A stretch of 10,514 bases of DNA from Candidatus Firestoneibacteriota bacterium (GTDB taxonomy: Bacteria; Oederibacteriota; D2-FULL-39-29; JBDRBU01). This document shows positions 283-5,897 of this stretch, one piece after another. The notes below the pieces were generated by a model. The model was not told where the DNA came from. It saw nothing but the letters and a program-made list of their open reading frames with translations, and did no database searches. The translations under genes were made by a program, and so were the position numbers. Position 1 is the stretch's first letter; each line of letters starts with the position of its first letter. The stretch lies in assembly GCA_043822305.1 (NCBI GenBank), contig JBDRBU010000032.1:1-10514 (forward strand), read 5' to 3'.

Positions 283-1260
283 TTAAAAATAAAAACTTAA
301 ATGTATATTAAACATTACTGCAATTCCCCTATCTCCGGATTTCAAGATAATATAATTTGCCCCTTGGTAATAATTCCGCATATAAGATATTCCTGTATCT
401 AGTCCTATTCCAATAGGAGCAAAATATAGCTCAGTCCCAATAAAACCACCTGCATTATAATAATTATCTATAGTATCAATGGCTCTATTACCACTATAAC
501 GAACGGCTAAACTATAATCAACACCTAAATATGGATAAATAACAGATCCCTCAGATATAAATAAATAATATCCCCGTCCTCCAATACTCCATGTCCGCAA
601 ATATATTTCGGCTAAAATATTATCACTAATACCGTATCTTATATGAAAACCAGGATAATTAAGGCCTATAGCAACTCTATTTGCGAAACTTGTTGTTTCG
701 ATTGTTTTATATTGTATGCGTTTATTTATTTTCTCTTCTTTTTTTTCTGCCGGTTTTTCAACTTCCTTTTTCTCCTCTTTTACCTCAACTCCTGATAATT
801 GACCAGCCACCTTTTTTGTTAACGCTTCAATTTCATCTAAATCCTTGCACTTCTCTCTTAGTGAAAATACGATGGCTGATGTTTCCACATCTACAACACT
901 TACTTCAAGATAATAGAACGTTCCTAGTTTTGACAAGGTTCCAACAACCATCTTTCTTACATTTAATATTCTCCCCACTTCAACAGCACACTCCATATTC
1001 GTACAACCTGACATCTGAAACTTCTGCTCATTTAATATTTTGTCCATATTTGTTCTATCTAATACTGTAAATTTCTGAGTATTAACCATATCGCTTCTTA
1101 AAAAATTCGCTACTATTTCAGCTTCTGCTGCTGATACAACTTTTGCATCAAAAGTAGCAACTGCTATCTTCTCTTTTTCTGCACCGAAAGTTAAATCACA
1201 AAAAAGAATTAAGAAACTTACAAAAAATAATATACTCTGTTTTTGTCGAGTAGAACTCAT
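283..1260 (-). CDS. Exported CsgG/HfaB-like protein with a C-terminal beta-strand-rich (outer-membrane-like) domain; 3' exon of an intron-interrupted gene
   Basis: Hydrophobic signal peptide (KQSILFFVSFLILFCDLTFGA). CsgG-like segment 'KFTVLDRTNMDKILNEQKFQMSGCTNMECAVEVGRILNVRKMVVGTLSKLG', K/E-rich linker, amphipathic strands ending in ...HLSFYF. Spliced form is join(1911..1908,1244..283), 321 aa, starting MKKQSIL. Unspliced form from the intron-internal ATG at 1260 is 325 aa, starting MSSTRQKQSIL. Confidence 0.75.
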   Translation of the reverse strand: MSSTRQKQSILFFVSFLILFCDLTFGAEKEKIAVATFDAKVVSAAEAEIVANFLRSDMVNTQKFTVLDRTNMDKILNEQKFQMSGCTNMECAVEVGRILNVRKMVVGTLSKLGTFYYLEVSVVDVETSAIVFSLREKCKDLDEIEALTKKVAGQLSGVEVKEEKKEVEKPAEKKEEKINKRIQYKTIETTSFANRVAIGLNYPGFHIRYGISDNILAEIYLRTWSIGGRGYYLFISEGSVIYPYLGVDYSLAVRYSGNRAIDTIDNYYNAGGFIGTELYFAPIGIGLDTGISYMRNYYQGANYIILKSGDRGIAVMFNIHLSFYF

Positions 1261-1400
1261 AGCCACCTCCTCGAGGACACTATGAGTCCCCTCACGGAAC
1301 TGGACGTGAAGTTTTCCCTCATCCAGCTCTTCAAGTATATCTCCCTATTTTGACCCTCAAAGGTCATTTTTAAGGTAATTGGGTTAGGTTGCGTTGCCAA
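1257..1400 (-). pseudogene. Remnant of the intron-encoded protein start; 47-codon mini-ORF reading through D4-D5-D6
   Basis: GGAG at 1409-1406, then TTG at 1400, at the usual IEP start position just after D3. First residues (L/M)ATQPNPITLK resemble group II IEP N-termini from memory. No RT motifs follow. Stop TGA at 1259-1257. Confidence 0.55.
1297..1329 (-). ncRNA. Group II intron catalytic domain 5
   Basis: 33-nt hairpin GAGCUGGAU...AC-GUCCAGUUC with AGC catalytic triad, purine-rich loop and AC bulge. Confidence 0.93.
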
Positions 1401-1907
1401 CTGTTCTCCAGCTTTGATACTGGCGGTTGTTTCCCCGTCCTGATATACTCGTAAGTCCCTTCGCTCCATTTGCTTTCACAGACTTCTTCGCTACTATGGA
1501 CTTATCCGACCACCTATTATAAATCTTTTGCAACTCCTTGCTTCTTACGGCTTGTTGTTGCATACCTCTTATAAGGAATACATAGGTTCTCCCAAGTTCC
1601 TGTAATATCTCTTTAATGCGTCGCCACGGTCTCAGACCCCGTCGGGTTCCTGTTTCCTCGCCTCTTTTATTTGATTCGGCTACAGGACTTCTGTCTGCTC
1701 CATTATGAACTGTCCTGACCTCCGACATGATGGTGATTTCGGGGCTCAATCCCTTCACTTGCGTTACGGCTCCACATTCCTCCACTTTGGCTTCACGTAT
1801 GCAGGTTACCCCACATGGTTGTGCAAAGGTTTGTTCTGGAGTGATGGCTAATCTTTTCCCAGATTGAATTTTCACCAATTTGATATTACAAGCTTTTCTT
1901 GGCACAC

Positions 1908-1920
1908 TCATAATCACCTC
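1908..1920 (-). promoter_or_regulatory. 5' exon end: Shine-Dalgarno GAGGTG, start codon ATG and 1 nt (intron target site, IBS2/IBS1)
   Basis: Minus strand reads GAGGTGATT-ATG-A|GTGTG. Joining to 1244 gives ATG AAA AAA CAG AGT ATA, in frame with the downstream ORF. Confidence 0.85.
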
Positions 1921-1935
1921 GAATACTCTTATATA

Positions 1936-1964
1936 AATATATCATTAAAATTCATAAATATCAA
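1936..1964 (-). promoter_or_regulatory. Putative sigma70 promoter of the intron-containing gene
   Basis: TTGATA (1964-1959), 17-bp spacer, TATATT (1941-1936) with an extended -10 TGn. The AT-rich context raises the chance of a false match. Confidence 0.55.
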
Positions 1965-5278: not shown

Positions 5279-5897
5279 TCATCTTTGAATTCTAAATAAT
5301 TGACCCTTTATTATTTCTTTTATCTCGTTTACTGCATCTTTAAGTTTATCATTAACTACCAGATAATCATACCTGGGAATTTTATTTAACTCATTTTCTG
5401 CTGTTTTTAATCTGATTTTTGTTTCTTTTAAACTTTCTGTGCCCCTTTTATGCATACGACTTAACATCGTGTTTATAGTTGGCGGTAATAAAAATATTAA
5501 AATAGCATTTTTCAAATTTCTTTTTTATCTCAAGACCACCTTTTACATCTATGGTTAAAATTACAGTTTTACTCTTTTTAAGATTATCCATAACAAACTT
5601 TTTTGGTGTTCCATAATAATTATTGTGAACTTTTTTACTTTCAAGAAAAAAACTTTCAGACTTTAGTCTTGAAAATTCGTTTTTTGAGATAAAACAATAG
5701 TCCTTACCGTTTATTTCTTTATTCCTTGGCAATCTTGTTGTCCAGGAAACTGCTCTTAAAATATTTTTATCGCTTTTTATTAATTCTTCACAAACTGTTG
5801 TCTTACCACCGGCCGTAGGAGCAGAGATTATTACTATCCGCCCTTTTAATCTTTTATATTTACGAACTATTTCTTCAAATTTTTTTTTATTCAACAT
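5279..5897 (-). CDS. gmk: Guanylate kinase, split by a single extra base near 5508-5526
   Basis: N-terminal part: 'IVIISAPTAGGKTT', 'SWTTRLPR..EINGKDYCF', 'VHNNYYGTP', 'IDVKG'. C-terminal part in the +1 frame: 'AILIFLLPP...L..R..RGTES...RL..A..E....YDYLVVND'. Removing one base gives a 205-aa protein. Confidence 0.93.

Follow-up and report, generated by a model that had tools for sequence, protein, structure and literature searches.

A group II intron beside a start codon in a Firestoneibacteriota bacterium, and a lineage that appears to insert at translation starts

Bacterial group II introns are thought to survive by avoiding genes. The available text of a 2015 review distinguishes three target specificities for such introns in bacteria and describes introns without an open reading frame (ORF) as rare (PMC4424553). 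The locus examined here, on contig JBDRBU010000032.1 of a Candidatus Firestoneibacteriota bacterium (GenBank assembly GCA_043822305.1), raises the question of what an ORF-less group II intron is doing one nucleotide behind the start codon of a gene for a CsgG-like secreted protein. The whole analysed stretch of 10,514 nucleotides (nt) is called the window below. An original prediction, drawn from its letters alone, held that the element recognizes translation-initiation regions in general. We compared the locus with related introns in genomes and metagenomes and conclude, with a probability of roughly 0.8, that it is a real ORF-less group II intron from a lineage, spread over many bacterial phyla and archaea, that inserts at translation starts, and that the copy in the window is a worn and immobile member of it.

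The intron and its exons

The intron was confirmed at the predicted coordinates on the minus strand, from 1907 to 1245 (663 nt), between GAGGTGATTATGA and AAAAACAG. Two Rfam models matched above their gathering scores: group-II-D1D4-6 (RF02005) at 1872-1627 (76.5 bits against 49, E 2.3e-20) and Intron_gpII (RF00029, covering domains 5 and 6, D5 and D6) at 1331-1245 (48.8 bits against 40), the latter ending exactly at the proposed 3' splice site. The termini, GUGUG at 1907-1903 and CUCGAC ending at 1245 with AC at 1246-1245, follow the GUGYG/AY rule, and the intron forms a GC island (0.42-0.47 inside versus 0.25-0.36 in the flanks). A 177-residue frame inside the intron matched no Pfam family, and a search with a related reverse transcriptase found no such gene within it, in agreement with the predicted ORF-less state.

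Read along the minus strand, the locus consists of TTGATA, 17 nt, TATATT, the 5' exon ending in GAGGTGATTATGA, the 663-nt intron from GUGUGCCAAG to GGAGGUGGCUAUGAGUUCUACUCGAC, and the 3' exon beginning with AAAAACAGAGT. The intron starts 1 nt downstream of the host ATG and is therefore an insertion beside an initiation codon. Its removal joins ATG-A to AA-AAA-CAG, as had been predicted, and gives the in-frame start MKKQSILFF..., i.e., MKKQSILFFVSFLILFCDLTFGAEKEK. The frame of the 3' exon matched CsgG (PF03783) with 35.2 bits against a cut-off of 20.8 (E 1e-8). A search for an intron-less allele or ortholog among homologues of the host protein came up empty, the best non-self match having 58% identity over 56% of the protein; this closest homologue begins MKKIILF...FGAEKEK, which fits the spliced MKK start. 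Among 12 genomes of the order, the best non-self match was 46% over the N-domain, within a large paralogous family. A look for RNA runs covering 900-2200 found none, and in four DNA runs the matching contigs covered only conserved intron pieces (the motif in domain 1, D1, and D5) from other organisms and no exon. The promoter of the original prediction is present as a site, and, if used, it would give a 5' exon of about 20 nt; however, promoter-like matches are no commoner in the region than in shuffles (6 versus 4.8 expected), and 1964-1936 is a consensus match only.

The window intron was placed in an alignment with 21 relatives, all of them full-length (638-686 nt) and taken from contigs of genomes and metagenomes; this set of 22 was partly picked for open frames running through the intron. 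The RNAalifold consensus of these 22 introns has 185 pairs. Because 99 of them show changes on both sides, the ribozyme fold is under selection in the lineage. The first exon-binding site (EBS1), UCAUAAU at 1708-1702, is complementary at 7 of 7 positions to exon AUUAUGA (1914-1908), and EBS2, UCACC at 1736-1732, at 5 of 5 positions to GGUGA (1918-1914), A1914 being shared with the intron-binding site (IBS1) that faces EBS1. Both sites had been predicted to the exact nucleotide, and both lie in the proper D1 loops, in their usual places, with the EBS2 loop directly 3' of the conserved GAGCCCCGAAAU. By chance, complementarity at all 7 and all 5 bases in such fixed places would be expected with probabilities of about 6e-5 and 1e-3, respectively. 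For EBS3, the predicted U1634 stood as to its coordinate and is unpaired in the Rfam structure, but RNAalifold pairs it G-U and leaves its neighbour C1635 unpaired; the position is U in 22 of 22 introns, and this invariance leaves no room for covariation. Among 60 distinct 3' exons of the D6-motif set described below, 53 start with A. The window ribozyme appears to be IIB-like in exon binding and matches the Rfam model group-II-D1D4-6. One relative, L058, holds an extra GC-rich hairpin of about 50 nt in D1.

Insertion sites, start signals and a frame through the ribozyme

The insertion sites of relatives were collected in two samples, neither of them picked by insertion site. The first used an exact 18-base D1 motif, with one genome per species, and covered at least 121 stretches. 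It gave 125 motif instances among the matches listed, of which 14 had too little 5' flank and 41 lacked GTGYG 145-160 nt upstream. Among these listed matches, 30 of 61 distinct introns follow ATG, GTG, or TTG plus 1 nt, where about 3 would be expected by chance. Start-codon junctions were found in 28 of 41 listed introns with the 5' end GTGYGCCR and in 1 of 17 of a sister group with GTGCGGCY. The bacterial hosts of start-site introns among the listed matches were Kiritimatiellales, Lentisphaeria, Victivallales, Verrucomicrobiota, Bacteroidota, Elusimicrobia, Edwardsbacteria, Vermiphilus, Limnochordia, Gammaproteobacteria, and Deltaproteobacteria, and the archaeal ones were Syntrophoarchaeum, Methanophagales, and Halobacteria.

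The second sample comprised 68 loci with a D6 motif in metagenome contigs. Upstream of the TGA in D6, the reading frame was open to a start codon plus A abutting GTGYG at 21 loci, still open at the contig edge at 27, and closed at 20. Secure 5' junctions came from this frame walk, from BLAST of 5' ends (5 loci), and from the D1-motif subset (1 locus), 27 altogether, and every one of them follows a start codon plus A (26 ATG, 1 GTG). At L188 the 5' match was partial only, and the extrapolated junction follows no start codon plus A. The pattern SD..ATGA↓ that the original prediction had expected among relatives (SD, Shine-Dalgarno sequence; the arrow marks the junction) thus recurs in both samples.

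The sequence behind the junction is usually that of a gene. Of the 60 distinct 3' exons, 35 lead into in-phase frames that have 75 codons or more or reach the contig end still open, and 25 of 41 tested exon-2 ORFs matched Pfam families of many different kinds, including PurE, MazE, ROK, thymidylate kinase, inorganic pyrophosphatase, peroxiredoxin, OmpH, aldose epimerase, NosD, and MFS. Because these matches often begin at profile position 1-3, the introns stand at the true N-termini of diverse genes. The second codon of the host gene would be AAA in 38 and AAG in 9 of the 60 3' exons. Taken from the junctions, the in-phase host frames, and these second codons together, the shared target is SD...AUG-A↓A(A/G), the start of an ordinary gene.

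Three further observations concern the exons. A strongly hydrophobic stretch lies within the first ~36 residues of 15 of 35 long host frames (L157-L224), which suggests signal peptides or membrane anchors. The in-phase frame is short in 25 of 60 3' exons, that of L158 stopping after 22 codons, and some interrupted genes may be decaying. The 5' exon of L058 (minus orientation), AAAGGAGGTTGGCTATGA, is near-identical to the D6 tail of the lineage itself, and the landing site of this intron may have been the D6 start of a copy already present.

Pairing between intron and exon follows the same sites. The EBS1 core UCAU was present in 37 of 43 distinct start-site introns. In 22 of these 37 the base after it matches exon position -5 by Watson-Crick pairing (28 with G-U); the second base behind the core pairs with -6 in 15 of them and the third with -7 in 3, and none of 5,000 permutations reached the observed EBS1 pairing. 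For EBS2, the longest Watson-Crick run between its loop and exon positions -16 to -6 averaged 3.43 for cognate and 2.93 for non-cognate combinations (n = 42; 0 of 5,000 permutations), the excess being weaker when G-U was allowed (p ~0.07). Clear EBS2 pairings are UUACUCC/GGAGUAA (L158), UUCUCC/GGAGAA (L154), and UACAC/GUGUA (L041). In this set, the best EBS1 is that of the window copy. These comparisons indicate that only AUGA↓A is generic, positions -5 and -6 and the EBS2 partner being specific to each copy and covarying with its own site. Recognition of start regions in general, as first proposed, is only partly right because the remainder of the target is specific to each copy: it holds for the lineage, which shares AUGA↓A, but not for the window copy.

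A second set of start signals, which the original prediction missed, lies in D6 itself. In the window, the D6 loop contains GGAGG (1270-1266), and the 3' strand of D6 an ATG (1260-1258); this ATG precedes the splice site by 16 nt and shares the reading frame of the gene (ATG AGT TCT ACT CGA C↓AA AAA CAG). The D6 tail GGAGGTGGCTATGAG(T/C)TCTACTCGAC recurs across phyla, and a second subgroup has AAGGAG-N-ATG(T/A/C)CTACTCGAC with the ATG 13 nt before the splice site. The distance from the D6 ATG to the splice site is always 3n+1, so that it has the same phase as the host ATG-N↓. Where both intron ends were known, a start-codon site was found for 15 of the 16 introns with an in-phase D6 ATG and for 0 of the 6 without a D6 ATG. 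Gene callers place the start of the window gene at the D6 ATG (P0001, 325 amino acids). Since SD and ATG in D6 are in frame, the gene does not strictly need splicing. The spliced protein reads M-K-KQSILFFVSFLILFCDLTFGAEKEK..., and that from the D6 ATG reads MSSTRQKQSILFF...; both N-termini, MKKQS... and MSSTRQKQS..., look like the charged start of a signal peptide, and the mature protein would be identical from either start if the signal peptide is cleaved.

A related intron with a reverse transcriptase occurs in a genome of the same order (G002, contig C28) and is 73% identical in D1. Its site, AAACTCGA↓...↓AACAATG, is intergenic and without a start codon, and its D6 holds no in-phase SD or ATG. 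It is a conventional sister of the start-site clade.

The frame set by the host ATG also continues through the ribozyme (the through-frame). In four start-site introns (L057, L058, L082, and L094) it has a single stop, the TGA that overlaps the D6 ATG (AUGA), at position L-14, while the other two frames have 11-19 stops. The same single-stop frame was found in 18 of 19 metagenome loci picked by the D1 motif regardless of frame, the exception being a form with a 392-nt deletion, and the length of all 19 is 2 mod 3; across these loci and the four introns, the other frames have 9-19 stops. A protein search with the frame of the window retrieved relatives of 209-228 amino acids. All 9 aligned relatives end in RRWL, which corresponds to the codons AGG AGG TGG CTA before the TGA overlapping the D6 ATG. 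With a profile of the through-frame, the matching cluster representatives numbered 453 at E<=0.001, falling to 188 at 1e-10 and to 33 at 1e-30. Variability is equal at the three codon positions, and it looks as though only the openness of the frame is selected, rather than a protein sequence.

One full-length member carries a gene in this frame. In a Syntrophoarchaeum metagenome-assembled genome (L041), a 1967-nt intron is traversed by one through-frame of 651 codons with a group II reverse transcriptase/maturase (TIGR04416, 372 bits, residues 213-583 of 651; best solved relative 7uim, E 4.6e-50). No domain beyond the reverse transcriptase/maturase model was matched in the L041 frame, in which D5 and D6 encode the last ~37 residues. 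Two other start-site introns with reverse transcriptases (L067 and L071) lack the through-frame. In two metagenome copies (L191 and L202) the 5' end is GCGYG instead of GUGYG, which should hurt splicing, yet the single-stop frame stays open from one end of the intron to the other; such copies may not splice and may be retained as translated leaders.

The window copy and the competing explanations

BLAST, RF02005, and RF00029 found no other copy of the intron in the genome, which has one D5 only, and no cognate reverse transcriptase was found in it; the assembly is 96.8% complete, which bounds both absences. The only reverse transcriptase-like gene of the genome (G000; contig C65, L155:1390-2406, plus strand, 338 amino acids) reached 166.5 bits with TIGR04416 against a cut-off of 300, covers profile positions 26-279 of 353 without the C-terminal part, and is possibly a group-II-like or defence-type reverse transcriptase. 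The length of the window copy is 0 mod 3, and its through-frame holds three in-frame stops, all in domain 4 (D4), closing after 175 codons and about 125 nt before the D6 ATG. Because it is a single copy without a cognate reverse transcriptase and with a through-frame broken in D4, the window copy is, on sequence evidence, best regarded as an immobile and somewhat worn member of the lineage. The proposal that many gene starts could be targets of this copy was not supported: elsewhere in the genome the ligated exons have one perfect 12-base site, contig C34:6212-6223 (L225:63-74), inside a TPR-like ORF (..KGDYEN..), and it is empty. Sites with at most one mismatch numbered 47, versus 25 for the reversed control pattern. 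The interpretation first offered is right for the lineage and overstated for this copy. Its splice sites, D5, D6, and exon pairings are intact, and the odds that it splices, which is plausible from these features, are about even. The D6 start can in principle express the gene with or without splicing.

Comparison shows how the lineage finds its sites: the EBS1 core UCAU pairs with AUGA, the start codon and one further base, 1-3 further EBS1 bases and EBS2 pair with the upstream spacer and the SD region, and a conserved U, the candidate EBS3, lies opposite the initial base of the 3' exon, in most cases an A that opens AAA or AAG as second codon. From there we infer the following course of events. 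The ribonucleoprotein may reverse-splice into AUGA↓A sites. Once inserted, the host SD and AUG would drive ribosomes into the element, and full-length members would thereby make their reverse transcriptase. Ribosomes would terminate at the UGA of AUGA and, aided by the D6 SD, begin anew on the host protein, which would then bear a short leader (MSSTR or MSTR); an open frame would avoid premature termination upstream of this restart site. In the folded ribozyme, EBS2 and EBS1 would cover the host SD and AUG, and splicing would restore the native mRNA. The interrupted gene could be expressed in either case, the CsgG-like protein of the window being made after splicing (MKKQS...) or from the D6 AUG (MSSTRQKQS...).

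Several results weigh against this account. The through-frame is closed in 20 of 41 evaluable metagenome loci and is thus common, not universal; its variability shows no codon periodicity (0.57, 0.55, and 0.55), and a reverse transcriptase was found in 0 of the 68 D6-motif loci. The mean complementarity of EBS2 to the SD region is modest (3.4 versus 2.9 bp). The window copy keeps 169 of the 185 consensus pairs, the lowest number of the 22 introns, and departs from the consensus at 24 of 302 highly conserved columns, compared to 2-20 in the others, and it may no longer splice. Both its splicing and the use of the D6 AUG in this organism are deduced from comparison of sequences.

The two figures for fold and conserved columns, which make the window copy the most deviant of the set, would be expected of a dead relic that does not splice, with the CsgG-like gene expressed only from the D6 SD and AUG and the upstream SD-ATG opening a 175-codon junk frame. 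We consider this unlikely, though with a chance large enough to be taken seriously. It is favoured by the lack of a maturase or reverse transcriptase of the intron's kind in the genome, by the broken through-frame, by the D6 ATG already being the choice of gene callers, and by L191 and L202, whose open frames despite GCGYG imply that non-splicing copies can persist. A relic of this kind is, however, at odds with the intact 5' GUGUG and 3' AC, the full set of D5 pairs, the bulged A of D6, and the EBS1 (7 bp, best of the set) and EBS2 (5 bp) pairings, and several of the consensus departures are compensated on the partner strand (e.g., alignment columns 130/330 and 522/628). The open through-frame might instead mean that the element is not ORF-less and that the ~210 codons encode a functional protein, a new kind of intron-encoded factor. 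The frame is indeed open in many diverged copies, and the 453 cluster representatives match its profile, but its variability is equal at the three codon positions, its conserved residues map onto conserved ribozyme segments, no Pfam family was matched, and it is closed in the window copy as well as in the 20 metagenome copies, which makes such a protein highly improbable.

That the EBS-IBS pairing by definition covers the SD and AUG is the sole point in favour of a host-serving switch, in which the host would have taken over splicing as a control on production of the CsgG-like protein, with EBS2 and EBS1 masking these signals, for instance. The same element precedes many unrelated genes, as a selfish element would, a D6 start would bypass such control, and Rfam gave only the two intron models in the window and no ligand-binding or sensor element; a switch therefore seems improbable to us. 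It is scarcely credible that the start codon is a coincidence and that an ordinary homing intron happened to land beside an ATG. The single copy in the genome and the intergenic site of the G002 intron, which carries a reverse transcriptase, would suit this, but 30 of 61 and 27 of 27 junctions in the two samples fall after a start codon plus 1 nt before unrelated genes, and in-phase D6 start signals mark 15 of 16 such introns and are absent from the 6 elsewhere. We therefore retain the reading of a real intron from a start-site lineage. A broader claim is possible, and we put it forward tentatively, with the odds somewhat against it: gene starts would be a fourth general class of prokaryotic group II targets beside homing sites, terminators, and attC, and the lineage would be a translational cassette that restarts the host gene at UGA/AUG, with insertion at ATG-AAR nearly harmless even if splicing fails. 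Forms lacking a reverse transcriptase would dominate and occur in genomes devoid of any cognate enzyme, and the lineage may thus also spread or persist without a protein of its own.

In contrast to introns that avoid genes, this abundant lineage lands on the start codons of ordinary genes, housekeeping ones included, and its own ribosome-binding site and AUG appear to offset the damage of insertion. If ribosomes are indeed handed back to the host gene, a mobile element would here have found a novel route to neutrality. This would also mean systematically wrong gene starts and spurious ~210-amino-acid "hypothetical proteins" in annotation, here P0001 and P0015, and would provide a natural scaffold for start-codon-directed targetrons. 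The lineage also allows direct tests of how translation and the folding of a ribozyme affect each other.

The features of the locus are collected in Table 1. Elsewhere in the window, a guanylate kinase frame (5448-5897, minus strand) has only 149 amino acids and covers positions 2-129 of the 182 in the profile, which may point to a truncation or frameshift close to the 3' end of the gene.

Table 1. Coordinates of the intron, its parts, and its exons in the window, and of the related intron in G002
Feature	Position	Strand	Remarks
Promoter-like site	1936..1964	minus	TTGATA-17 nt-TATATT, TG before the -10 hexamer; 10/12 consensus matches
5' exon end	1908..1920	minus	SD-like GAGGTG 1920-1915, ATG 1911-1909, A1908
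IBS2 and IBS1	1918-1914 (IBS2); 1914-1908 (IBS1)	minus	GGUGA and AUUAUGA; by complementarity to EBS2 and EBS1
ORF-less group II intron	1245..1907	minus	663 nt, GUGUG to CUCGAC
Domain 1	1592..1902	minus	Consensus fold mapped to the window; RF02005
D1 internal loop with EBS2	1726..1739	minus	UCACC 1736-1732; unpaired in Rfam structure and consensus fold
D1 hairpin terminal loop with EBS1	1702..1710	minus	UCAUAAU 1708-1702; unpaired in covariation-supported fold
Candidate EBS3	1634	minus	U facing first 3'-exon base A1244; unpaired in Rfam structure line
Domain 2	1508..1591	minus	Consensus fold
Domain 3	1452..1504	minus	Consensus fold
Domain 4 remnant	1332..1451	minus	No reverse transcriptase gene; stops with first bases 1386, 1359, 1347
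Domain 5	1297..1329	minus	GAGCUGGAUGAGGGAAAACUUCACGUCCAGUUC; Rfam and consensus fold
Domain 6	1247..1294	minus	Bulged branch-point A at 1251; SD GGAGG 1270-1266, ATG 1260-1258
3' exon, CsgG-like secreted protein	283..1244	minus	Starts AAAAACAGAGT at 1244; stop codon 285-283
Related intron in G002	contig C28, L004:1395 onwards, L013 to ~1647		

Comparison with known systems

A IIB1 clade associated with start and stop codons (Avi.groEL, EcKTE56.groEL) is described, in the available part of PMC12584367, as hosted by proteobacteria, with a subdomain Ia of 300-700 nt at the D1 base and a CL1 reverse transcriptase that includes an endonuclease domain. As far as that description goes, the present lineage is similar in that its introns are tied to codons with which protein genes start or stop, and the groEL members of the IIB1 clade put UAG in place of the UAA that they hit, which resembles the replacement of the start signal by this lineage. 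In contrast, the whole window intron is 663 nt long and has an ordinary D1 base, with the conserved D1 motif beginning 154 nt from the 5' end; no ORF for a CL1 reverse transcriptase with endonuclease is present in the window copy, and L041 matches the reverse transcriptase/maturase model only; and the hosts of this lineage belong to many phyla and include archaea. Judged by the same part of the source, the window intron differs in structure from the IIB1 clade, having neither subdomain Ia nor a CL1 reverse transcriptase with endonuclease. We found no description of a D6-borne SD and AUG or of a through-ribozyme frame for that clade in the available text of PMC12584367.

Group IIC introns insert after transcription terminators or into attC sites, according to the accessible parts of PMC4424553 and PMC12584367. 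Like them, the start-site lineage targets a generic genetic signal rather than one gene and uses a short conserved exon pairing. However, group IIC introns, as portrayed there, read a DNA hairpin with short pairings at intergenic sites, whereas this lineage has no hairpin, a covarying EBS2, and a site inside the gene at codon 2.

ORF-less introns served in trans include TeI3 of Thermosynechococcus and the dnaN introns of Trichodesmium, and C.te.I1 of Clostridium tetani is an independent ORF-less intron (available parts of PMC2882425, PMC4424553, and PMC12584367). Copies of TeI3 insert between the two start codons of another intron's reverse transcriptase ORF, as the accessible text of PMC2882425 has it. 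The present intron shares with all three the lack of an intron-encoded protein. On the same partial sources, the genomes with TeI3 and the dnaN introns carry a cognate reverse transcriptase (C.te.I1 excepted), whereas none was found in this genome, and the sites of these introns are single conserved sequences, in contrast to gene starts in general for this lineage. No cognate protein that could serve the window intron in trans was found, the gene on contig C65 being the nearest candidate at 166.5 versus 300 bits in the 96.8% complete genome. A start-codon-targeting ORF-less lineage, or an SD and AUG in D6, was not found described in the literature that our search covered, key older papers lying beyond its reach.

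The intron ORFs of yeast mitochondrial aI1 and aI2 are read in frame with the upstream exon. The intron protein of L041 is similar to these, as it would be translated from the host start through ribozyme sequence. The introns aI1 and aI2 are not known to have an SD or AUG in D6 or an overlapping stop-start hand-back. They are organellar and lie deep inside cox1, whereas the introns of this lineage stand at gene starts.

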